From positions 1 to 25,617 of the forward strand of contig JBHLLF010000037.1 in NCBI GenBank assembly GCA_048885865.1: a DNA stretch of 25,617 nucleotides, read 5' to 3'. Under the pieces are notes generated by a model that was not told where the DNA came from, did not search any database, and worked only from the letters and a program-made list of their open reading frames with translations. The stretch is from Candidatus Hermodarchaeota archaeon. Lineage in GTDB: Archaea; Asgardarchaeota; Thorarchaeia; Thorarchaeales; Thorarchaeaceae. Positions 5,281 through 22,545 of the stretch are shown here, one piece after another (the first letter of the stretch is position 1; each line of letters opens with the position of its first letter). The translations under genes and the position numbers were made by a program.

Positions 5281-6735
5281 CTATTCATAGAGGCTCTTAC
5301 GGCCTACAATTATACCGACTATTAATGATACAATGAAGCCTCCCACAGCCCCACCCACGAAGCCGAGCTCACTTTGTCCGGGAGGCGGTGGAGGTGGGTC
5401 GACATAGCGGATAACTGTATGAGTTGTAACCTCTATCTCACCCGCAATCAAGTCATGCACAATGGATTCCGCTTCCAATATTGCAGCTCTTGCTTCCAGT
5501 AATGCACGATGCATTTCATTGATTGAGGCCGACATTTCCCACCAGTCATGCACGCCTCTAGATCTATCTTCATTGAATAGCTCCACAGTGTCACGAGCAG
5601 TAGTGATTGCCAATTGAGCCATAGCTACAATTGTGGCATTCGCACCTAGGGTAGCTTCATACCGCAATGCTTGATTTTCAATATCATCGGCTAGGGACAA
5701 TAGCTCCAGTGTCATGGCTTCATATGTGTCATGTATGACTTGGAGCTGGCCAAGTACATAGGTCTCCATGCCCTTATGACAGAACTCACTTTGCCCACAC
5801 GCCGCTTCAGCATTCACATTGAAAGAGTGGTTCATGAATCCTTGGCCATTTGGCTGGATGCCATAGCCATGACAGTCAACACACATGACTCCAGCAAGTT
5901 GATGGGAGCTGCCAATCCAGATGTCGTACATTGGCTGGTCTGGACCAGAATGACAGATTCTGCAAAGTTCTGTGCTGTTCTCCGCTCTAATCATTGCTGG
6001 ATATGATGACCAGTTTGTGTGAACCGCATGACAGGCAGGACATGTAATCGTATTGTATGAGCCGTCCACAGAGAATGATGTATTCACTGCAGGTGAAAAT
6101 GTCGAGATGAATTCGGGATTCCGATAATAGACAAATGCCTCTGTGCTATGACAATACATGCATCCAGTCGTTGCATGTTCACTTGCCCTAAGGTCGGCTA
6201 ACGAGTTTGCATGAGCCGTGTTTCGCCATACAATATGTTGATGAGGACCCAAAGGTGCGCTGGGACTGTGGCAGGTGCTGCAAAGTGCGCCTGAATAGTC
6301 TGACCACTCAGACCATAAGGCATCATGACAAGCACGGCAGTCCACTCCAATATCATCGTAGGAACCAGTGATATTGTTGTATCCGCTCGTATGGCAAGCT
6401 GCACATTCTGAATCGAAGATTGTATAGCTGATATTCATATCGCCGCCGATCTGCACATGAGTTGCATTGATCTCAATGATGTGAGTAGCATGGCCTGTCT
6501 TTACCCAGGCGTTGTATTCTGCTGGATGGCATGGTGCATTCCCGCAGTTTGTGATATCTCCGCCGCCCATTCCGGGTGAGGACATACAGTTTTGCTTGTC
6601 AGTAGAATATCCAAGTGGAATGGGAATTGCTGGACCTGGTGACCCTAGAAGCAAACTGAATCCTGCTATGCATAGGAATACGTAGTATCCAAATACCCAC
6701 TTCTTTCGCTCGAGATTATTTGCATATCTAACCAT
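5281..6735 (-). CDS. Membrane-anchored extracellular multiheme c-type cytochrome (7 CxxCH + CX4CH + CX5CH)
   Basis: CAACH, CRACH, CSTCH, CMYCH, CPACH, CRICH, CVDCH, plus CGNAPCH and CGQSEFCH. N-terminal signal/TM, C-terminal helical region with DRSRGVH, poly-Pro linker and C-terminal TM. Many N-x-S/T sequons. Confidence 0.93.
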   Translation of the reverse strand: MVRYANNLERKKWVFGYYVFLCIAGFSLLLGSPGPAIPIPLGYSTDKQNCMSSPGMGGGDITNCGNAPCHPAEYNAWVKTGHATHIIEINATHVQIGGDMNISYTIFDSECAACHTSGYNNITGSYDDIGVDCRACHDALWSEWSDYSGALCSTCHSPSAPLGPHQHIVWRNTAHANSLADLRASEHATTGCMYCHSTEAFVYYRNPEFISTFSPAVNTSFSVDGSYNTITCPACHAVHTNWSSYPAMIRAENSTELCRICHSGPDQPMYDIWIGSSHQLAGVMCVDCHGYGIQPNGQGFMNHSFNVNAEAACGQSEFCHKGMETYVLGQLQVIHDTYEAMTLELLSLADDIENQALRYEATLGANATIVAMAQLAITTARDTVELFNEDRSRGVHDWWEMSASINEMHRALLEARAAILEAESIVHDLIAGEIEVTTHTVIRYVDPPPPPPGQSELGFVGGAVGGFIVSLIVGIIVGRKSLYE

Positions 6736-6893: not shown

Positions 6894-7445
6894 TTGTCAA
6901 TAAGAACCCCGCGTTATATGTTCAAGATGGTCAGTTTGGGTGACGCGGCTACAGGTAAGACAAGCTGCATAGTCAGATACACCGAGAATAGCTTTGGGGA
7001 GTCGTATCAGGCAACTATGGGAACAAACATAGCAGTAAAGAATCTTCAAGTTGCCTTGACAGAAGAGAAGACTGTGCCGGTACAGATTGTTCTATGGGAT
7101 CTTGGCGGGCAACCAGATTTCAAGGAGCTTCGGCTGCGATATATGGCTGGAGCCAGTATTGCCTTCATCGTCTATGATGTGACGAATCCCAGATCGTTTC
7201 TTCATGTGTATGATTGGTATTCGAATTTCATGTCAGTGAATCCCGAAGCTACTGTGACTATAGTGGCCAACAAAATTGACTTGGAAGATAGGTGGGTACC
7301 TCCCGAAGCAGGACAAATGCTAAGTGATTGGCTTGACGTCACCCATGTTGAAACCAGCGCAAAAACAGGGGAGAATATTGAGGCCCTATTCACTGACCTC
7401 ATTGGCTCAGCAGTGAGAAAGTATCGTGACAGATCAATTGAGTGA
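6894..7445 (+). CDS. Rab-like Ras-superfamily small GTPase (eukaryotic signature protein)
   Basis: G1 GDAATGKT, G2 ATMG, G3 WDLGGQ, G4 NKID, G5 ETSAK. No C-terminal Cys prenylation motif. TTG start after AAGGAG. Confidence 0.93.
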   Translation: MSIRTPRYMFKMVSLGDAATGKTSCIVRYTENSFGESYQATMGTNIAVKNLQVALTEEKTVPVQIVLWDLGGQPDFKELRLRYMAGASIAFIVYDVTNPRSFLHVYDWYSNFMSVNPEATVTIVANKIDLEDRWVPPEAGQMLSDWLDVTHVETSAKTGENIEALFTDLIGSAVRKYRDRSIE

Positions 7446-7651: not shown

Positions 7652-9127
7652 CTATGGGACGAGGACTCCAGCTGCCAACGATGCATAGTCCAGGATTAGA
7701 CCGGGAAAGATGCCAATCATTATTGTAGCCACTACTGCAAGTAGCACAGCCGCAAGAGGAATCGTCGGAATTCGCAATGTTGTACCTTCTGTTGGTTCCA
7801 TGAAGTAGCAATACCTTAGGATTCTCAAGTAATAGCCAAGTGCAAATACTGAGTTTAGCACAGCAATTATCGCCAACCACCAAAGCCCAGCATCGACTGC
7901 AGCTCCAGGCAATAGGAACCACTTGAACCAGAATCCTGCTGTGAATGGTGCACCTGCCAGAGCAAAGACCATTATTGCCATCAATAGAGCAACAATCGGA
8001 GCACGAGTACTGAGTCCTTTCAAATCATCATATGTAACCTCTTTTCCAATGGAAACAGCCAATGCCCAAACCAGGATAAACGCGCCCGTCTTGATGAGTG
8101 CATGGGCAAACGCGGTAAACATCGCAGCTGCTGCTCCAAAGGCCGTTCCTGCTGCAATCCCCACGAAGAGTAGACCCATCATCATGATGGATGAGAAGGC
8201 TAACATTCTCATGATGTTGCGCTGAGCGAGTGCCAGAATATTCCCAATGATCATGGAAAGAATCGAGATAGTGACTACGACAGGCATCCATTCCATCTGT
8301 GCTGCAACAAATGCAACGAGTAGTATCCGAAGGAGGGCACTTACACCTGTCTTCTTGGTTGCACCAGCCAGATATCCTGTGACGCTTCCGTCAGCAGTTG
8401 CATACGCGTCGGGGACCCACATCCATCCTGGGAACACACCGACCTTGAATCCAAAACCGATCAGGAACAGCACCATAGACAGAAGCATTGCGTAGGCAGA
8501 CGGAGAAGCGGCGCTCCAGACGACACTAACAAATGCAGCAACAGCGGCAAAGCTTGTGGCACCTGTTGTACCATAGACAATTGCAATTCCAAATAGGATG
8601 AGAGTTGACGATAAGAGTCCCATGACGAAGTACTTGGTTGCTCCATCAATAGCTCCTCTGTGGGGCCCTAGCGCAACAAGCACATATGTCGGCGTACTCA
8701 TGAGCTCCCATGCCAAAAACAACGCCACAAGATCGGTTGCCATAACGACCCAAATTGCGCCAGCAAATGACATCATGAGGAGAAAGTTGTATGTACCCTT
8801 ATTTCCACCGTATGTCGTCGACGAAAGCAGTATTATGAATGCGACAACCAGAATGATCCAGATGAAGAAATCGCCAAACATGTCTCTTACAAATAGTCCT
8901 CCAAAGGAAGAACCCTGATCAATGAGAATCATCTCAAAGCCTGCAAGGGCAATGCCAATGAAACTGACTGCCAAAGGACTTCTTCTCATTCCTACAATGA
9001 GTGCCAAGATTCCGAAAAGGATGAGCGTCAAAGCTGGTAATGATACTAGCCAATCCGCTGGGACTAGTGCAAAGAAGGGACTCAAGATGTCGCTGATAGC
9101 ATCGATTATTGTGGAAACCTGTAGCAT
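7652..9127 (-). CDS. nuoN: Complex I-like subunit N (antiporter-like)
   Basis: About 14 TM helices; WELMS, GATKYF, FKVGVFP, WVPDAY, RMLAFSSI and TM12 FWFKW (Lys) motifs. Last gene of the cluster. Confidence 0.92.
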   Translation of the reverse strand: MLQVSTIIDAISDILSPFFALVPADWLVSLPALTLILFGILALIVGMRRSPLAVSFIGIALAGFEMILIDQGSSFGGLFVRDMFGDFFIWIILVVAFIILLSSTTYGGNKGTYNFLLMMSFAGAIWVVMATDLVALFLAWELMSTPTYVLVALGPHRGAIDGATKYFVMGLLSSTLILFGIAIVYGTTGATSFAAVAAFVSVVWSAASPSAYAMLLSMVLFLIGFGFKVGVFPGWMWVPDAYATADGSVTGYLAGATKKTGVSALLRILLVAFVAAQMEWMPVVVTISILSMIIGNILALAQRNIMRMLAFSSIMMMGLLFVGIAAGTAFGAAAAMFTAFAHALIKTGAFILVWALAVSIGKEVTYDDLKGLSTRAPIVALLMAIMVFALAGAPFTAGFWFKWFLLPGAAVDAGLWWLAIIAVLNSVFALGYYLRILRYCYFMEPTEGTTLRIPTIPLAAVLLAVVATIMIGIFPGLILDYASLAAGVLVP

Positions 9128-10671
9128 TATGGAATCACCCCTATCATATCGTTGACTATCGGTATCACTAGATTAAGCACAAGATCTGGCCATAGCCCGA
9201 GTATGATGACTGGTATCATCATCAAGATTGGTGCAATGAGATCACTCCATGGTGCTTCAGTGACTTCCTTCTCAGGATCAGGGTCACTGAACACAATTCT
9301 GTTCAGGGTCCAAAGGAGATATCCTACCGTGACAAAGATCCCAAAGGCGATGAAGCCGGACCAGATGTAGATGTTCACTGACCCAAACAGTACAAGGGCC
9401 TCTGCAATGAATCCGCTCATTCCAGGCAAGCCAAAGGCTGCAAAGACCGCGAGGATAAAGACAGCGGACATTCTAGGAGCTTTCGTCATGAGACCCATGA
9501 CATCAGGAATCAGTCTGCTTCCGGCCGAGTACTTCAGCTGGCCGGCAAGAATGAACATGACAGAAGAAATCATCCCATGGGATACCATCATGAATACTGC
9601 GCCCTGAACTGCAAGGCTAGCTGAGAAGAGTTGACCCTCTGTGGCTCCACCTCCAATGGCAAATCCTCCGATGGCAACTCCAAGTAACACCCATGCCATG
9701 TGGTTGATTGATGTATAAGCAACCATTGACTTCACATCTGTCTGGCCCATTGCTACGAATGCGGCGTAGATGCATGTGAAGACGGCGAGGACGGCGAATG
9801 GGATACTGAGTCGCGCAAATCCTTGCGGAACCATCCAGAGACCCAGTCTAATGAACCCGTATCCACCCATCTTCAAGAGTATTCCAGCGAGTATTACTGA
9901 GCCAGGAGTTGGAGCTTTTACATGGGCCCAAGGTAGCCAGTTGTGCAGAGGAAAGACTGGAAGCTTGACACCAGCACCCAGAAAGACTGCCAGTGCAAAG
10001 CCAATCTGAATGTTGATTGCAATTGGTGCAGCCTTGATCGCAATCATGTTGAATGTACCGGGTCCAAGGAAGAACAGCGCCATGAATGAGACCAACATCA
10101 CAGCTGAGCCAAGGTGTGTGTAGATGAAGAACTTGACAGCTGCGTGTTCACACCCCTCTTCGCCCCATCTTCCTATTATGAAGAACATCGGTATCAAGAC
10201 CAATTCCCAGAAGATGAAGAAGCTGATTAGATCAAATGACATGAATACGCCAAGCAGACCTGTCTGGAGCATCAGAAAGAACATGTAGTACAAGTGCTGC
10301 GATTTCTTGATATGGTTTGAACTGAGTGCTGCAATGAAGACCACGAGGTTTGATAGAAACACCATGGCAACGGATATTCCGTCAACACCTAGGTATATCT
10401 GGAGGAGAGCATTCCAGCTCCCAAATTGCACATCACTAAGTGTGAATGCCCATTCAAACCACATAGCTCCTGGATCTGGCAGAATTGCTACAATGAGGAC
10501 AAATGAAAGCAGGAGTTCAACGAATGTGACAATGAGCGTGAGAGCTCTGCCTCCTCTTGCACCGAGTATGTAGGCAAAGAATGCTGCAACCAATGGGGCA
10601 AATAGCATCAGTGGTAGTATGTTGTCCATTGGCAACATTGCGATGAGGTCCTGGATGAATCCGAGCTGCAT
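9127..10671 (-). CDS. nuoM: Complex I-like subunit M (antiporter-like)
   Basis: LGVDGIS, FFIFWELVLIPM, AVKFFIYT, VKLPVFPLHNWLPWAHVKAPT, LAGILLKMGGYG and GLPGMSGFIAE motifs. Confidence 0.95.
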   Translation of the reverse strand: MQLGFIQDLIAMLPMDNILPLMLFAPLVAAFFAYILGARGGRALTLIVTFVELLLSFVLIVAILPDPGAMWFEWAFTLSDVQFGSWNALLQIYLGVDGISVAMVFLSNLVVFIAALSSNHIKKSQHLYYMFFLMLQTGLLGVFMSFDLISFFIFWELVLIPMFFIIGRWGEEGCEHAAVKFFIYTHLGSAVMLVSFMALFFLGPGTFNMIAIKAAPIAINIQIGFALAVFLGAGVKLPVFPLHNWLPWAHVKAPTPGSVILAGILLKMGGYGFIRLGLWMVPQGFARLSIPFAVLAVFTCIYAAFVAMGQTDVKSMVAYTSINHMAWVLLGVAIGGFAIGGGATEGQLFSASLAVQGAVFMMVSHGMISSVMFILAGQLKYSAGSRLIPDVMGLMTKAPRMSAVFILAVFAAFGLPGMSGFIAEALVLFGSVNIYIWSGFIAFGIFVTVGYLLWTLNRIVFSDPDPEKEVTEAPWSDLIAPILMMIPVIILGLWPDLVLNLVIPIVNDMIGVIP

Positions 10672-10672
10672 T

Positions 10673-13000
10673 CTAGAGCACCCCCAGGGATAGTAGAACG
10701 ATTATGACCAGAATCCCAATCCCGAACATTATCACTCCAACGTAGTCATTGACTCGACCAGTCTGTGCAGACTGACTGGACTCTGAAGCGGCAACGCTGT
10801 ATGTAGAGACCCCTTCAGCAAAACCATCAACGACATTATCATCAAACCATTTCAGCTTCGTTGCTAGACCTTTGCCTGCGTCAGCAGACTTGAAGTCGAT
10901 ACCATCAATGATTTTGTTGTCAACATTCACTCGATAGCGTTCGGCCGCACTCAGGAATTTGTTCAGTATCCAATAGTAGAATTCGTTAATGTACCAACGA
11001 TGCTTCAGGAAGTTGTGCACCCTCCTCCTAAAGCCCTTCTCAGGTACCCAAGTGTTGGGAGTATCAGCACCCCTGATGTACATCACATATCCTGGAATTC
11101 CACCCAGAGCGAGCGCGCCTAGCGTGATCATGAAAGGCACGATTCCCGGATAGGTCAGCTTGACCTCTATCATATGCGCCAAGTTCTCAGCCCATGTATG
11201 ACTCTCTTCAAGCACAATGTTCTGAACGAACGGGAAGACAAGGAACGCAATGACAGTAAAGGCTGCTAGAAGATACAATGGCACCATCATTGCCGGACCT
11301 GGATCATGAGGAGTTGAATGATGCTGCTCTTCGAAGTGGTTGTCATGCGGTTCTTCATGCTTCTCTGAGTTACCTTCATGCGACTCTTCATGCTCCTCTA
11401 GGTCTTCATACTGCAACTCTTCATTGTCTTCTGGTTGCTCATCCTCATGTGAATCGTGTGAGTCTTGTGACTCATCATGGCCATGACTCTCCTTGGAAGG
11501 CCCATAGAAGGTGATACCCATGAGTCGAATGCTATAGAATATCGTGCAGGCAGCTGCCAGGACAGCAAAGAAGAATAGCATCCAACCTATCGGATTTGGC
11601 CATTCAACCGCCAGTTCATAGGCATACTCGATGATAGAGTCCTTTGACCAGAACCCTGAGAACGGCGGGATACCTGCGAGCGCAAGCACACCAATCCACA
11701 TCACGATGAAGGTCTTCCGCATGTATTGTTTGAGACCTCCCATCTTGGTGATGAACTTGGTATGAACGGCGTGTATAACGCCTCCTGATGCAAGGAATAG
11801 AAGGGCCTTGAATGCACCATGCGATATCACATGCATCACGCCGCTCAAGTACGCATCAGTGAAGTGAAGTCCCTCAGCCTGAAGGACGCCGCCCACACCT
11901 AGTGAGAGCATCATGTATCCAAGCTGGCTGAGTGTTGAGAATGCCAGTATCTGCTTGAGCTCGTTTGAGACCATTCCCATGGTCGCCGTCATGAGGGCAG
12001 TAATACCGCCGATGATTGCTACAAAGATGAAGAAGGTCAACGCTGCTTCAAACCCAATTGCCTGAAGTCCAGCGATATGTTCACCACCGTTGCCCTCACC
12101 ACCGGCTGCTGACACCATTGTGACCAGGAATCGAGCGGTGATATAGACACCCGCCTTGACCATCGTCGCAGCGTGGATGAGAGCTGAAACGCTTGTGGGA
12201 CCGGCCATAGCCTCCGGTAGCCAGACCTGCAGTGGAGCCTGTCCGGACTTGCCAATTGCACCCATGAAGATGAGTAGGAATGTAGGCACAAGCATCCCGA
12301 TGCCTGCCATGGTGCTCCACCATGATTGGGCATCAGCCGCCATCTCAGTGAAGGAGAATGTGCCAGTGAAGACGAACAGAATCAGGATACCGCCCAACAT
12401 GAATGCATCACCGATTCTCGTGACGACGAATGCCTTGGTCCCGCAGTGGGTGTTGTACTGTCCCTCGGTTTCGAATTGAAGAAGCGGGTTTGTGGAGTGA
12501 ATGTCTGATGGATCGGTCTCGGGAGGGTTCCTCTTGTCATTCCAGAATCCTATCAAACCATAGGAGCTGAATCCCATGATCTCCCATCCGATAAATGCAA
12601 TCAGAAGGTTGTTGCTGAGCACGAGAGTGAGCATTCCGCCACCGAACGCCAACATCAGGAAGAAGAATCGATCCCGGTCGCCCTCATGAGCCATGTACTC
12701 TGTAGAGTAGACATAGATGAGGAAACACAGAGTGCTGGCTAGAACCCCCATAACAACAGAGAGCGGGTCCAGGAGAACCTCGAACTCGAGTCCTAAGACC
12801 TCAATCCACATCCAGTGCGTGGTCTGGGTCGGGTTTCCAATCTCAGGTAGCAGCGACCAGCATAGAACCATAGAGATTCCCATGAGGATTGCAGGTGTCC
12901 AGTCTCGCGCTCGCTCGCTAAACCTTCCAACAAGTGGAACGAGGAGAGAGCCAAGCAGTGGAATCACGAGGATAAGCCAATAGGGTAGTCCAAGCAACAT
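10673..13000 (-). CDS. nuoL: Complex I-like subunit L with a His/acid-rich loop and an extended lateral helix
   Basis: LDPLS, GWEIMG, KAFVVTRIGD, GKSGQAPLQVWLPEAMAGPTSVSALIHAATMV, FSTLSQLGYM, FWSKD and QTG..Y motifs. ATG at 13000 follows GAGGTGA (track start TTG 13006). Confidence 0.95.
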   Translation of the reverse strand: MLLGLPYWLILVIPLLGSLLVPLVGRFSERARDWTPAILMGISMVLCWSLLPEIGNPTQTTHWMWIEVLGLEFEVLLDPLSVVMGVLASTLCFLIYVYSTEYMAHEGDRDRFFFLMLAFGGGMLTLVLSNNLLIAFIGWEIMGFSSYGLIGFWNDKRNPPETDPSDIHSTNPLLQFETEGQYNTHCGTKAFVVTRIGDAFMLGGILILFVFTGTFSFTEMAADAQSWWSTMAGIGMLVPTFLLIFMGAIGKSGQAPLQVWLPEAMAGPTSVSALIHAATMVKAGVYITARFLVTMVSAAGGEGNGGEHIAGLQAIGFEAALTFFIFVAIIGGITALMTATMGMVSNELKQILAFSTLSQLGYMMLSLGVGGVLQAEGLHFTDAYLSGVMHVISHGAFKALLFLASGGVIHAVHTKFITKMGGLKQYMRKTFIVMWIGVLALAGIPPFSGFWSKDSIIEYAYELAVEWPNPIGWMLFFFAVLAAACTIFYSIRLMGITFYGPSKESHGHDESQDSHDSHEDEQPEDNEELQYEDLEEHEESHEGNSEKHEEPHDNHFEEQHHSTPHDPGPAMMVPLYLLAAFTVIAFLVFPFVQNIVLEESHTWAENLAHMIEVKLTYPGIVPFMITLGALALGGIPGYVMYIRGADTPNTWVPEKGFRRRVHNFLKHRWYINEFYYWILNKFLSAAERYRVNVDNKIIDGIDFKSADAGKGLATKLKWFDDNVVDGFAEGVSTYSVAASESSQSAQTGRVNDYVGVIMFGIGILVIIVLLSLGVL

Positions 13001-13011
13001 TTTCAATCACC

Positions 13012-14529
13012 TCATGGAAGCAAGGTAGCTATTCCTTCTACACCAGGTATGATGACATCTAGTGCCAACCCTGGGAATATTCCAAACAACACAATGAGAA
13101 ATCCAAGGATAATCATCGGGGCAGTCATCCAATCAGAGCTCTCCTTGACATCCTCCAGTTCAGTTGGATGAGGTCCAAGGAAAACCTTCCAAAGATAACG
13201 GAGCATATACCCGGCACTCACTATTGAGCTTGAAACAGCCAAAATGGACAGGACAAAGAACTCGGGTCGTGCGAGCCCTCCTGATCCCATCAGAACTGCT
13301 TCAAAGCCCCCTAGAAACATCATCCATTCACTGGCGAATCCAGAAAGGGGAGGACTCCCTGCAATGCTCATTGCACCGATAGCTGCAGCGAATGCAGTGA
13401 TGGGCATTTTGTTTGAGAGACCGCCCATCTTGTCAACATCCCTCAGATGAGTCTGGTGAATCACCGCTCCAGCGGTCATAAACAAGAGTCCCTTGCTGAA
13501 GGCATGATTGATGAGATGAAACAGACCGCCAGCCACACCAAAAGTGGTAATCATGCCCAGGGCAAAGAGGACATATCCCATCTGCGACACTGATGAGTAA
13601 GCCAGCAGTCTCTTGATGTCTTTCTGGACAAGCGCCATAGCTCCTCCATAGAACATTGTGGCAACACCAAGCAGTCCAATCCAGAATGAGAGCGAGGCGG
13701 CTGCGGGTCCAAGCGTTATGATTCCGAAACGGACGAGAGCATATGCGCCGGTCTCAATCATTGCTCCAGATAGTAGAACAGAGATAGGAGTCGGTGCTTC
13801 TGCGTGAACTGGAGGCAGCCACCAATGCAATGGGAAAGCTGCCATCTTGACTAGGAAGCCGGCAGCGAACAGGATGAATATGATCTGCAACAGTCGTAGG
13901 TCTGACCAGATGGCTGGAGCCATTGCTAGAATAGAGTATAGCTCAAACGTACCCGTAAAGAAGTACAATAGACCCAAGGCAATCAATATACAGACTGCGC
14001 CAGCTTGAGTGTAGAGCCAGAACTTAATGGCGGTCCGTTTTCGGGTTTCAGGCAAGCCCCAAAACAGAATCAGGAAGTAAGATGGGACAAGCATGATCTC
14101 CCAAAAGATGAAGAATTCCAGCAAATTTGTTGCCAGCGTTACACCTTGCATTCCCATGATGAAGAATAACGTGTTTGCAAAGAATGTGGGCTTGTTCTCA
14201 GTATGTTCTGTGTAACCTACGGCATAAATCACCGAAAGAAACCCTAATACTACGACGGCAAACGTGATTGGGAAGGCAATCTCATCAAGGTAGAGACCAA
14301 ACTCCCCAAGTACAACTGACCAGGTGACTTTCTCAGCAGCTCTACCACCTTCCACCAGGACCCGGTAGAATGGAGGTACCATTAGCAATGCGCCCACTGC
14401 TGAGAATCCAACTGCCATCTTCCCTGATGTCTTTTCGAGTCGTCCGCGGAGTAGGTAGATCAAGAGACCTCCTATAAAGAGGACAAGCAAGGACAAGGTC
14501 ATGAATGGAAACTCGAACGACAGCTGCAT
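13012..14529 (-). CDS. nuoM: Additional NuoM/MrpD-like antiporter subunit (M')
   Basis: FFIFWEIMLVPSY, AIKFWLYT, VKMAAFPLHWWLPPVHAEAPTP, DIKRLLAYSSVSQMGY and GFASEW motifs. ATG at 14529 overlaps the nuoI stop (TGATG) after GGAGG. Confidence 0.85.
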   Translation of the reverse strand: MQLSFEFPFMTLSLLVLFIGGLLIYLLRGRLEKTSGKMAVGFSAVGALLMVPPFYRVLVEGGRAAEKVTWSVVLGEFGLYLDEIAFPITFAVVVLGFLSVIYAVGYTEHTENKPTFFANTLFFIMGMQGVTLATNLLEFFIFWEIMLVPSYFLILFWGLPETRKRTAIKFWLYTQAGAVCILIALGLLYFFTGTFELYSILAMAPAIWSDLRLLQIIFILFAAGFLVKMAAFPLHWWLPPVHAEAPTPISVLLSGAMIETGAYALVRFGIITLGPAAASLSFWIGLLGVATMFYGGAMALVQKDIKRLLAYSSVSQMGYVLFALGMITTFGVAGGLFHLINHAFSKGLLFMTAGAVIHQTHLRDVDKMGGLSNKMPITAFAAAIGAMSIAGSPPLSGFASEWMMFLGGFEAVLMGSGGLARPEFFVLSILAVSSSIVSAGYMLRYLWKVFLGPHPTELEDVKESSDWMTAPMIILGFLIVLFGIFPGLALDVIIPGVEGIATLLP

Positions 14530-14960
14530 CAACGGAACCTCCTTCCACGCCACTCAAGTGGGTCTCGATCGAGAGTTTCTATCTTGTCAGGACCGTAGAG
14601 TAAGTCCTCCCTCTCTCCTTCGCTAATATCTACAACCTGAGTGTGAAACAGTGCGTCAAACCTGCAAGCTTGAACGCATAGGCCACAGAATATACACCGT
14701 GTGTAATCAAAATAGAGGGCGGCGTCTTTCTCGAAATGCTTGTCACTCTTATCGATGCTAATAGCGACAACAGGACACGCACGTACACATTGCATACATG
14801 CAGTGCATTTCTCACGTACATGGATATGCCTTCCACGAGTCCTCTCGGGATATTCCCTGTCCTCGAAGGGATAGAAGTATGTGAATGGACGGGACATCAC
14901 TTGACGGAATATGTGTCTCAATATCTGGAATATGTCACCTAGATTTCTGAAGAATCCCAT
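14529..14960 (-). CDS. nuoI: Complex I-like subunit I, 2x[4Fe-4S]
   Basis: FTYFYPFE...RGRH, CTACMQCVRACP and CIFCGLCVQAC motifs. Confidence 0.95.
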   Translation of the reverse strand: MGFFRNLGDIFQILRHIFRQVMSRPFTYFYPFEDREYPERTRGRHIHVREKCTACMQCVRACPVVAISIDKSDKHFEKDAALYFDYTRCIFCGLCVQACRFDALFHTQVVDISEGEREDLLYGPDKIETLDRDPLEWRGRRFR

Positions 14961-20004: not shown

Positions 20005-20550
20005 CTATTCAGTAGGAGCTTCCTCGGGTGATTCAGTTGATTCTTCAGCTGCGTCACTAGATTCTAGTTCAGGTGCCGCTTCTGACTCGGCTTCACCCTC
20101 ACTGGCTTCCTCTCCCACTGACTCAGGCTTAGGCTCAGGCTCAGGTACCGGCTTGTATTTGTAGTCGCTGACTTCCATAATTCCTGGAGTCACACTTACC
20201 TCCATTGGATCCAGCATTGAGAAGCCACCAGCCAGAAGGATTGCGCCGCCCATTCCCCAGGATGCATAGATGATGTCACTGCCAAAGTAGACCAAGGCAT
20301 AGATTGTGTAGAGAACTCCAATGACAATTGCCATCGAGAGCATGTTGACCTTTATCCTGCCTCGCTTCGGTCTGAAGTATCCTACGAGAAAGAACACCAT
20401 TACCAGCGGACCGCCAGCCATGAATGGGAAGTGCAGCGCCATTGCGGTATCGGCAATAGAAGCTAGCAGGAGGTCGAAGACATACGCACTTAGAATAATT
20501 GTGCCAATCAGTAGCATGCAGTACTGGTCACTGTCTTCACGCAATTTCAT
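20005..20550 (-). CDS. Hypothetical 4-TM membrane protein with an acidic tail
   Basis: ATGA overlap with the FAD-NuoB stop suggests translational coupling. Four TM helices and an E/P/S-rich C-terminus. Confidence 0.82.
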   Translation of the reverse strand: MKLREDSDQYCMLLIGTIILSAYVFDLLLASIADTAMALHFPFMAGGPLVMVFFLVGYFRPKRGRIKVNMLSMAIVIGVLYTIYALVYFGSDIIYASWGMGGAILLAGGFSMLDPMEVSVTPGIMEVSDYKYKPVPEPEPKPESVGEEASEGEAESEAAPELESSDAAEESTESPEEAPTE

Positions 20551-22487
20551 TGAATCATCCCCATTGCGTCCTGGTTCTCATACTTCAGCTGCCAGTGTGT
20601 AGTACCTGCACGAATCTTGTTCTGAAGTATCAAATGAGCCCTGACGAAGTCAGATGGCTTAGGGGGACAGCCGGGCAAATAGACGTCGACAGGGACTACG
20701 GACTCAGGTGGAACCTGCAGCGAATATCCGTCCCAAAAAACGCCCCCACTGGCTGCACACTGTCCGAAGGCAATCACGAACTTGGGGTCTGGCATCATCT
20801 CGTAGACTCTTCGAAGTCGTGGAGCCATCTTCTTTGTTAGAGACCCAGATATCCATAGCACATCACACTGACGCGGGCCAAATAGTGGGAGCATCCCGAA
20901 TCGTTCAAAGTCCCATCTTGACGCAATTCCAGCTGCACCATCCACCATGCAACATCCTAATCCGTATTGCACTGGCCATGGACTATGCGCTCGGCCCCAT
21001 CGCAGCATCCACTTGAGCGGCGGCAGGTTCTGGAGCCACTTCAGAAGTATTGGAGCAATCCTGCCAAACCCATTCCTGAATAGGTCATAGAATATCCAGA
21101 GGAAGTACTTACCAAACTTGAGAATAAGTGGTAGCCAATAGGCAAACACCTTCCCAGGGTTTGATATCTCCTTCTTGTCGTACTTGAGCTTTGCTGCACG
21201 AATCTTTGCCAATCGCTGTTTTCCAAAGTACTGACTAGCTTGGTTTGCAAACCAGATTCCCGTGGAGTGTGCGTGACCGCCGTGTCTCTGTGCAATCTTG
21301 AAGACGACAAAGCTCTGAGCCCATGATAACATGAAGAACCTGCGGCGCTCATCTTCGAGGAAATAACCCATCATAGTGACGGCATTTGGTGAGTTGACAT
21401 AGCCGTCAATGCCAGCTTGCGCAGATCCTTGCTCAAATTGCCAATCATCCAGTATTGCTGTGAGGTTCTCAAGGGGAGCAAATGCTTGGCCAACGACGAG
21501 GGTGGGACCAGCCTTCTTGACTCGCATTGGATAGAAGCGGTCATGCCATTCGTGAGCAGCGACATGCTCATCGTAGACAGTTCCCTTGTACATCTCCGTG
21601 ACTTCTTCAACAACTCTCAAGCCTTCTGCAATCTCCTCCTCATCTCCATCGTATGCAACCATAATGCTGCCGTGATGAACAGGGAATGGGAACTTCTCTT
21701 CACTGTCCCAAATCTTCTTCTTCAAGTCAGTGTATTTGGACTCTTCAAACTTAATCGTGAATGGAAGAGGGCCATCTTCGAGTATCTTCTCAATGGCATG
21801 GACCATCAGATAATTCTCAGGGAAACTTGACACGATTACCTTGATCGGTGTGAGAGGCTTGATCTTCAGGGTGACCTTTGTAATTATTCCGAGGATTCCT
21901 TCGGTGTCGCAGAATAGGTCACAGTCCTTACTTTTGACAATCTTGCCAGTCGGTAAGACCACCTCAAAAGCTACGACATTCTTGTTAATGTTTCCGTACT
22001 TGAGAGAGCCAATTCCATCGCCGCCCTGTGCAACCCATCCACCAATGGTTGCTGAGAGTCCAGAAGAGGGATAACAACGCAAATCGAAGTTCTTTCGGTT
22101 CAACTCGAATTGCAGGTTCGCCCATGAGAGTCCTGGTTCAACGGTGACGGTCATGTTTTCTTCATCAATTTCAACAACCTTGTCCATAACACGCATGTCA
22201 ACTATGATGCCGCCCTTACGAGGAATAGCACCACCATATCCTGAAGTGCCCGCCCCCCTTGGTACAAGAGGGACCTTGTACTTGTTTGCGAACTTGTAAA
22301 GGAATTTAATCTCTTCAGGGGTTTGAGGCTGAACAATCGCGTCAGGCTTGACGTTCATTAACCAGCCCACTTGTTTGGGCAAAGAACCAACATCCATGCC
22401 ATGGATTACGAGCTCATGCTTCTCTGTGATCACGCGGTCTTCATAGACCTCAGCGAGTTCCGTCACTAGCTTTGGCTTCAGTGTCAT
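20547..22487 (-). CDS. nuoB: Fusion of a GlcD/D-lactate dehydrogenase-type FAD-linked oxidoreductase with complex I subunit B
   Basis: N-terminal part: VPRGAGTSGYGG, VTVEPG, PSS..ATIGGWVA, LKYG, TEGILGIITKVTLK, ISNPGK. C-terminal part: GLGCC, DFERFG, PRQCD, KMAPRLRRVYEMMPDPKFVIAFGQCAASGG, VDVYLPGCPPKP. One uninterrupted frame. ATG at 22487 (track start TTG 22502). Confidence 0.93.
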   Translation of the reverse strand: MTLKPKLVTELAEVYEDRVITEKHELVIHGMDVGSLPKQVGWLMNVKPDAIVQPQTPEEIKFLYKFANKYKVPLVPRGAGTSGYGGAIPRKGGIIVDMRVMDKVVEIDEENMTVTVEPGLSWANLQFELNRKNFDLRCYPSSGLSATIGGWVAQGGDGIGSLKYGNINKNVVAFEVVLPTGKIVKSKDCDLFCDTEGILGIITKVTLKIKPLTPIKVIVSSFPENYLMVHAIEKILEDGPLPFTIKFEESKYTDLKKKIWDSEEKFPFPVHHGSIMVAYDGDEEEIAEGLRVVEEVTEMYKGTVYDEHVAAHEWHDRFYPMRVKKAGPTLVVGQAFAPLENLTAILDDWQFEQGSAQAGIDGYVNSPNAVTMMGYFLEDERRRFFMLSWAQSFVVFKIAQRHGGHAHSTGIWFANQASQYFGKQRLAKIRAAKLKYDKKEISNPGKVFAYWLPLILKFGKYFLWIFYDLFRNGFGRIAPILLKWLQNLPPLKWMLRWGRAHSPWPVQYGLGCCMVDGAAGIASRWDFERFGMLPLFGPRQCDVLWISGSLTKKMAPRLRRVYEMMPDPKFVIAFGQCAASGGVFWDGYSLQVPPESVVPVDVYLPGCPPKPSDFVRAHLILQNKIRAGTTHWQLKYENQDAMGMIQ

Positions 22488-22545
22488 GTGGACTCTCTCC
22501 AAGAGACGAAGCTGCTCTCAGGTCACGGTCGTGGAATCATGCTCC

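Follow-up and report, generated by a model that had tools for sequence, protein, structure and literature searches.

Our results suggest that the lateral helix (HL) of NuoL in a thorarchaeotal genome is probably that of a four-pump, 2M-type complex I, with two 26-residue docking modules in the helix and a four-pump membrane arm drawn from two lineages. The gene lies in a stretch of 25,617 nucleotides (the window hereafter), contig JBHLLF010000037.1 of assembly GCA_048885865.1, deposited as Candidatus Hermodarchaeota archaeon and placed by GTDB in the Thorarchaeaceae. The number of modules, their strict conservation, the gene order and a helix that is never too short for the pumps encoded with it were observed directly. 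The main points are this never-too-short rule, the apparently hybrid make-up of the four- and five-pump operons of Asgard archaea, which is new here, and a five-pump cluster in one Asgard family.

The protein encoded by the open reading frame (ORF) at 10673-13006 is NuoL, the distal antiporter-like subunit of complex I, as judged from its sequence and its predicted structure. Pfam finds PF00662 (4e-12) and PF00361 (1.5e-58) in it, and the closest solved relatives in a sequence search are L/ND5/NdhF chains. The AlphaFold2 (AF2) model has a predicted template modelling score (pTM) of 0.76, and its top Foldseek matches are exclusively L/ND5/NdhF chains, at probability 1.00 and over the full chain length. 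The model also gives the protein the C-terminal extension that marks a NuoL, namely transmembrane helix 15 (TM15), a long amphipathic lateral helix and TM16.

An earlier note on this DNA had claimed that a motif which normally occurs once ahead of the terminal QTG is present twice, exactly 78 nt apart. Both parts of this claim held. The motif hDxxhhDG, searched as [VIFLM]Dxx[VIL][VIL]DG, matches NuoL at two sites only, VDNKIIDG at residues 695-702 (10901-10924, minus strand) and FDDNVVDG at residues 721-728 (10823-10846, minus strand), with an offset of exactly 78 nt or 26 codons; the same scan of M, M' and N, the other antiporter-like subunits encoded in the cluster, gave zero matches. Solved L subunits carry the motif once. 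HMMER aligns the sole VDYNVVDG of Thermosynechococcus elongatus NdhF1 (6hum_F) to either NuoL copy, with an offset of 26, and the single motifs of 6tjv_F, 8e9g_L and 7eu3_F to copy 2. Copy 1 lies 23 residues past the WYINEFY anchor, which is the canonical distance, and copy 2 stands at the canonical distance ahead of QTG. The note had further spoken of an exact 26-residue duplication. The spacing is indeed exact but the sequence is not, since the two units in register have 3/26 residues in common; at the DNA level, 17/24 bases of the two motif copies match, counted from the sequence.

This low similarity outside the 8-residue motif, together with a self-match of the thorarchaeotal helix profile in which offset 26 ranks second only (z 2.7 against column shuffles), is what would be seen if a short motif had recurred by chance in a helix of biased composition, with no true repeat. 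We consider this vanishingly improbable, and our results rule it out. When NuoL was shuffled 200,000 times, the rate of two or more motif matches was 5e-6. Moreover, the 26-residue spacing is kept in 46/46 thorarchaeotal sequences, the one motif of solved L subunits can be aligned with either copy, and the module count among relatives runs from 0 to 3 in steps of 25-27 residues.

The C-terminal part of the AF2 model contains helices at residues 622-645 (TM15 region), 671-741 and 751-773, the second of which runs unbroken across both modules (Table 1). In a one-M relative of the same family (L074), modelled by the same method, 51 helix residues lie between the anchor and TM16, and the stretch that separates the anchor W from the start of TM16 measures 55 residues, compared to 80 here. 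The thorarchaeotal protein shares with the canonical NuoL/Nqo12/ND5/NdhF subunits (6hum_F, 8e9g_L, 3rko_L, 4he8_L) the fold, the anchor, the hDxxhhDG module, the QTG hinge and TM16; R670, W671, N674 and G750 are invariant in alignment A1, and T749 is nearly so. Unlike the canonical three-pump L subunits, which have one module, it has two. Its anchor-to-QTG distance is 78 residues, versus 52-54 in NdhF1 and in one-M Asgard NuoLs (about 52 from anchor to QxG in NdhF1), and alignment A2 places in it a block of 26-27 residues that E. coli NuoL and the one-M Asgard NuoLs do not have. These comparisons bear out the lengthened helix proposed from the sequence: they support a thorarchaeotal HL that exceeds that of solved three-pump enzymes, and of the closest one-M Asgard relatives, by a single 26-residue module.

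An alpha-helix rises 1.5 Å per residue, so that 26 residues correspond to about 39 Å. In the arrangement that we favour, the HL links the WYxN anchor, which follows TM15, to the QTG hinge, which precedes TM16, with two modules where solved three-pump enzymes have one, and the extra module would add about 39 Å of helix, roughly the width of one antiporter-like subunit. The strap would then run from NuoL across three partners (M', M and N), with TM16 planted at the proximal end and M' placed proximal to NuoL and not beyond it. We infer both the position of the second module over a pump and the order of the subunits in the arm. The two modules would be old members of one module family, not fresh copies of each other.

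The genes for these partners are in the same cluster. On the minus strand the nuo cluster of the window encodes an FAD-oxidase::NuoB fusion, a 181-aa acidic ORF, nuoA, J, K, C, D, H, I, M', nuoL, nuoM and nuoN. M', L, M and N lie side by side as intact genes, and are the sole four PF00361 genes of the genome (3.58 Mb, 87% complete). Two NuoM-like genes in one nuo cluster bring the encoded antiporter-like subunits to four, as in 2M complex I; the second of them, M', had been proposed from the sequence alone, and PF00361 confirms it. The order A-J-K-C-D-H-I-M'-L-M-N fits all 55 thorarchaeotal loci as far as each contig extends, and both motifs, with no indel between them, are present in 46/46 complete thorarchaeotal NuoL C-termini. 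Since the motif pair is invariant in all of these proteins, the two-module helix is a fixed, selected feature in the lineage.

This combination is known. According to two papers that cite Chadwick et al. (2018, ISME J 12:2668), 2M complex I is marked by a second NuoM and by an insertion of 26 aa in helix HL of NuoL, which is proposed to let the helix reach over four pumps, not three (PMC9040806, PMC6606698); this bears out the HL insertion of about 26 aa that the earlier note had given for 2M complexes. Two further papers citing Chadwick et al. 2018 also treat the enzyme (PMC7117926, PMC7300363). As in 2M complex I so described, the thorarchaeotal cluster has a second NuoM-like gene and a NuoL helix longer by about 26 residues (78 versus 52-54, with the block in alignment A2). 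In 2M enzymes the long helix is proposed to make room for a fourth pump and to raise the ion-to-electron ratio. The HL extension is a known hallmark of 2M complex I, to which the enzyme of the Thorarchaeota is now added. It differs from the Chloroflexi 2M enzymes, in which the extra M lies between L and N, in that its extra M is upstream of nuoL (M'-L-M-N), and from 2M complex I as described in the citing papers by the thorarchaeote host, the NuoB-flavoenzyme fusion and an operon that seems to combine two complex I lineages of Asgard archaea. Literature searches that paired Thorarchaeota with nuoM or with complex I had no relevant result. The relevance of the strap to activity is known from E. 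coli, where loss of the NuoL C-terminus yields a fragile, inactive complex, and where most small insertions are tolerated while six or seven residues between L and M lower pumping (PMC3274701).

The relation between helix length and pump number was scored across 63 Asgard NuoLs (8 thorarchaeotal representatives and 55 others), 59 of which could be scored for both U, the number of modules between anchor and QTG, and S, the number of antiporter-like genes in the same cluster. The module count is based on the anchor-to-QTG distance, and three loci were assigned by eye. The two-pump clusters have zero modules in eight cases and two modules in one; three-pump clusters have one (25 clusters), two (8) or three (2); four-pump clusters have two (10) or three (4); and the one five-pump cluster has three. 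None of the 59 scored Asgard clusters has U below S-2. Clusters that encode extra pumps thus always have a helix of sufficient length in this sample, but a long helix alone does not show an extra pump.

Several observations weigh against taking the second module as the counterpart of M'. Two or three modules are found in 10/35 of the three-pump Asgard clusters, three in four of the four-pump clusters and two in one two-pump cluster. One of the three-module cases, G067, is a single-contig, 96%-complete genome with just three PF00361 genes, and a bacterial A-to-N cluster with one M also has three modules. When contrasts were drawn on a NuoL core tree built without the helix, six independent changes in helix length were obtained, with pump number up in three, down in none and unchanged in three; a sign test on these contrasts (3/6) was not significant (p 0.25). 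In addition, the predicted local distance difference test (pLDDT) along the modelled HL is low, 37-73 in the monomer model, as expected because the strap was modelled without its partners.

These data bear on what the earlier note had expected. It had looked for strict co-occurrence of the extension with a second nuoM, which fails on the 10 three-pump Asgard clusters and the one-M bacterial cluster with surplus modules. It had also named the double motif and helix length, if common in archaeal operons with a single nuoM, as the observation that would tell against it, and this was encountered in part, in those same three-pump clusters. Finally, it had taken the extension as independent evidence that M' is built into the arm; with surplus modules this common, the helix is a necessary fit only.

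If the surplus is taken at face value, the second module would be unrelated to M', the length of the HL would drift in 26-residue units and the match with pump number would be a coincidence of inheritance. The modules in excess of what the pumps need in 15/59 sampled clusters, among them the single-contig three-pump, three-module genome, would be accounted for, and so would the bacterial one-M cluster. Similar cases have been described: in Ca. Manganitrophaceae, 26 aa are inserted into the C-terminal amphipathic helix of the distal pump subunit, which is NuoL in Complex_I_1 and Complex_I_2 and MrpD2 in Complex_I_3, and the insertions of Complex_I_1 and Complex_I_2 occur without an extra pump (PMC9040806). 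The one-M clusters found here with two or three modules, from Asgard archaea and from a bacterium, resemble these. We nevertheless find such drift improbable. In the sampled clusters the modules never fall below pumps minus two, and 8/9 of the two-pump clusters have none at all. Within the NuoL clade to which the thorarchaeotal protein belongs, three separate lengthenings accompany more pumps, with modules going from one to three alongside pumps from three to five in one family, and the spacing of the modules is invariant in 46 thorarchaeotal sequences.

A library-wide HMMER search with the thorarchaeotal helix gave 194 matches, mostly gap-free across both modules, and the genomic context was examined for seven of them. 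For three metagenomic NuoLs that share the RWYIN-type anchor and have two modules, the gene immediately upstream of L is M' each time. A fourth context is that of the bacterial one-M cluster with three modules. Of the remaining three, two are on contigs that end early, and in one, NuoL and just one more antiporter-like gene were seen outside a nuo cluster.

Some relatives deserve mention for their own sake. In family f28, which has three pumps and two modules, the fourth PF00361 gene of the genome lies in an Ech-like cluster. Such separate clusters (C/D, one antiporter-like gene, H, I, B) were seen in several Asgard genomes, at L119:1596-7400, L120:12244-17985, L121:3476-9588 and L122:2018-8124; they inflate genome-wide PF00361 counts, and pumps should therefore be counted per cluster. 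One Asgard family (f30; loci L072, L093 and L091) has five antiporter-like genes, in the order K-M''-M'-L-M-N, and a NuoL helix with three modules (L072:2858-11139 in G306; L093:1-4000 with L091:5076-8539 in G308). Its first M has an in-frame TAA in G306 (L072) and is intact in G308, whose cluster spans two contig ends. Another genome, G075 (loci L079:1741-6598 on C50 and L081:5911-14749 on C56), has two NuoL-like genes in tandem, one encoding 724 aa and two helix modules and the other 751 aa and three modules, and its nuo operon, A-B-C-D-H-I-J-K-M-N, has no L between K and M.

The origin of the long helix was approached through the ancestry of its parts. A protein tree of M and N contains two M clades and two N clades, of which we call the members A-type and B-type. 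In every four- and five-pump Asgard cluster, M' is an A-type M and groups with the M of one-module, three-pump clusters, and the M and N of these same clusters are B-type and group with those of multi-module three-pump clusters (support 100). NuoL gives two different answers. In the core tree, the NuoLs of the four- and five-pump clusters are nested in clade A (support 99). In a tree of the tail, defined as the last module, QTG and TM16 (57 columns), they and B are split from A (support 97). The core alignment rejects the tail split in the approximately unbiased (AU) test, with p 0.0009 and a log-likelihood difference of 127.

In support of this conflict, all 15/15 four- and five-pump tails, that of HL module 2 here included, score as B-type, with the B-tail hidden Markov model (HMM) 8-36 bits above the A-tail HMM. 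Leave-one-out controls of the tail HMMs placed 25/25 A tails and 8/9 B tails correctly. A sliding comparison of NuoL is A-like throughout and switches only in the last interval compared, and sister lineages (L058, f14, f30 and the metagenomic P0031 and P0042) have an A-type first module and a B-type last one. The conflicting ancestry of core and tail points to recombination inside nuoL rather than to a simple duplication in place. We regard it as a serious, if tentative, possibility that the four- and five-pump Asgard operons are mosaics, in which an A-type M and NuoL core were joined to a B-type NuoL tail, M and N by recombination within the helix-coding part of nuoL. The distal module and TM16 would then share ancestry with M and N, and the NuoL core with M'. 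The four-pump arm would most likely come from two complex I lineages, with the crossover inside the HL-coding part of the gene. The f30 cluster resembles the thorarchaeotal operon in this respect: its M' copies and the core of its NuoL are A-type, the NuoL tail, M and N are B-type, and the helix is modular. It differs in its two extra M genes and three helix modules.

A mosaic origin has points against it. Module 1 of the thorarchaeotal helix scores 7-9 bits as a DG-type unit, versus -1 to 3 as A-type, with the reservation that unit-level HMM scores for this module are small (<11 bits) and its type in Thorarchaeota is ambiguous. The A and B groups were defined after the trees had been seen, and the tail alignment is short (57 columns). 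Contact with B-type M and N could also have led the tail to acquire B-type features by convergence.

The DG-type score of module 1 therefore fits a local event too. The 78-nt segment encoding one HL module could have been duplicated in tandem in the ancestor of the thorarchaeotal 2M NuoL, and the copies could have diverged while keeping the hDxxhhDG contact motif. Both thorarchaeotal modules have the DG-type motif, and such duplications clearly occur in relatives, two of them recent. The NuoL at L098:6050-8119 (G284) has two 26-residue units with 17/26 identical residues, counted from the C-terminus; that of a two-pump cluster, L101:4447-6531 (G182), contains a repeat of 25 residues in which 18 consecutive ones are identical; family f28 has duplicated its own A-type unit; and one bacterial NuoL has three near-identical modules. 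For the Thorarchaeota we consider a tandem duplication rather unlikely. Their two units are identical at just the three positions given above, the sister lineages have modules of different types, the core and tail trees of NuoL conflict, and the type of the tail tracks that of M and N. The earlier note had seen in the repeat a visible trace of how the helix was lengthened. The lengthening itself stands, but in this lineage it was probably no simple duplication, given the conflicting ancestries of core and tail.

Under the mosaic origin, the lateral helix would consist of 26-residue docking modules that can be exchanged, each passed on together with the pump over which it lies, and its length would cap the number of pumps without fixing the actual number. 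If this is true, complex I's membrane arm could be rebuilt by swapping units of pump and helix module between enzyme lineages, which would offer a specific way in which extra-pump enzymes could have arisen repeatedly and by convergence. An extra-pump complex I changes the number of ions moved per electron pair and so sets which low-energy or reverse-electron-flow metabolisms are possible. Thorarchaeota uniformly encode the four-pump enzyme with a matching strap, and with them the Asgard archaea join the holders of 2M enzymes. For annotation, too few modules in NuoL rule out extra pumps, and a long helix is no proof of them; 2M calls should therefore rest on the pump genes.

Table 1. Positions in the window of the antiporter-like genes and of the parts of the NuoL lateral helix
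Feature	Residues	Position	Strand	Basis
nuoL, 777 aa; stop codon 10673-10675		10673-13006	minus	ORF and translation, Pfam, AF2/Foldseek
Helix anchor WYINEFY, start of HL	671-677	10976-10996	minus	alignment A1; modelled helix starts at 671
HL module 1, begins VDNKIIDG	695-720	10847-10924	minus	aligns to 6hum_F motif; alignment A2
HL module 2, begins FDDNVVDG	721-747	10766-10846	minus	aligns to 6tjv_F, 8e9g_L, 7eu3_F, 6hum_F
Single modelled helix, 71 residues, across both modules	671-741	10784-10996	minus	AF2 secondary structure
QTG hinge ahead of TM16	748-750	10757-10765	minus	alignment A1; AF2 loop 742-750
TM16, C-terminal membrane anchor of the strap	751-773	10688-10756	minus	AF2 helix
M', extra antiporter-like subunit, 513 aa, A-type M		13012-14553	minus	PF00361; M/N tree; upstream of nuoL
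nuoM, 514 aa, B-type		9127-10671	minus	PF00361; B-type M clade, support 100
nuoN, 491 aa, B-type		7652-9127	minus	PF00361; B-type N clade, support 100

Apart from the helix, NuoL has two insertions. The first, residues 154-188 (12443-12547, minus strand), is conserved and mostly non-helical (...NPLLQFETEGxYNTHCG...); it is without counterpart in T. elongatus NdhF1, and HMMER skips query residues 163-189 in this comparison. The second, residues 507-563 (11318-11488, minus strand), is acidic and His-rich, lies between two TM helices and is modelled as disordered, with pLDDT of about 31-34. Among thorarchaeotal relatives NuoL measures 729-798 aa. In three genomes of the same family the NuoL match has one in-frame TAG each (G365:C5:25379-27634, G351:C222:65822-67417 and G342:C165:6123-7679), which could be a sequencing error, a broken gene or stop-codon recoding.

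At the other end of the cluster, the fusion protein (651 aa, 20547-22502, minus strand) joins NuoB to a flavoenzyme of the FAD_binding_4 / FAD-oxidase_C type. A 531-aa ORF beside the five-pump cluster of G308 (L091:1553-3145) matches this fusion (phmmer, 337 bits). Beyond nuoN, the window encodes a Ras-family small GTPase (6894-7445, plus strand) and a multihaem cytochrome c (5281-6735, minus strand).

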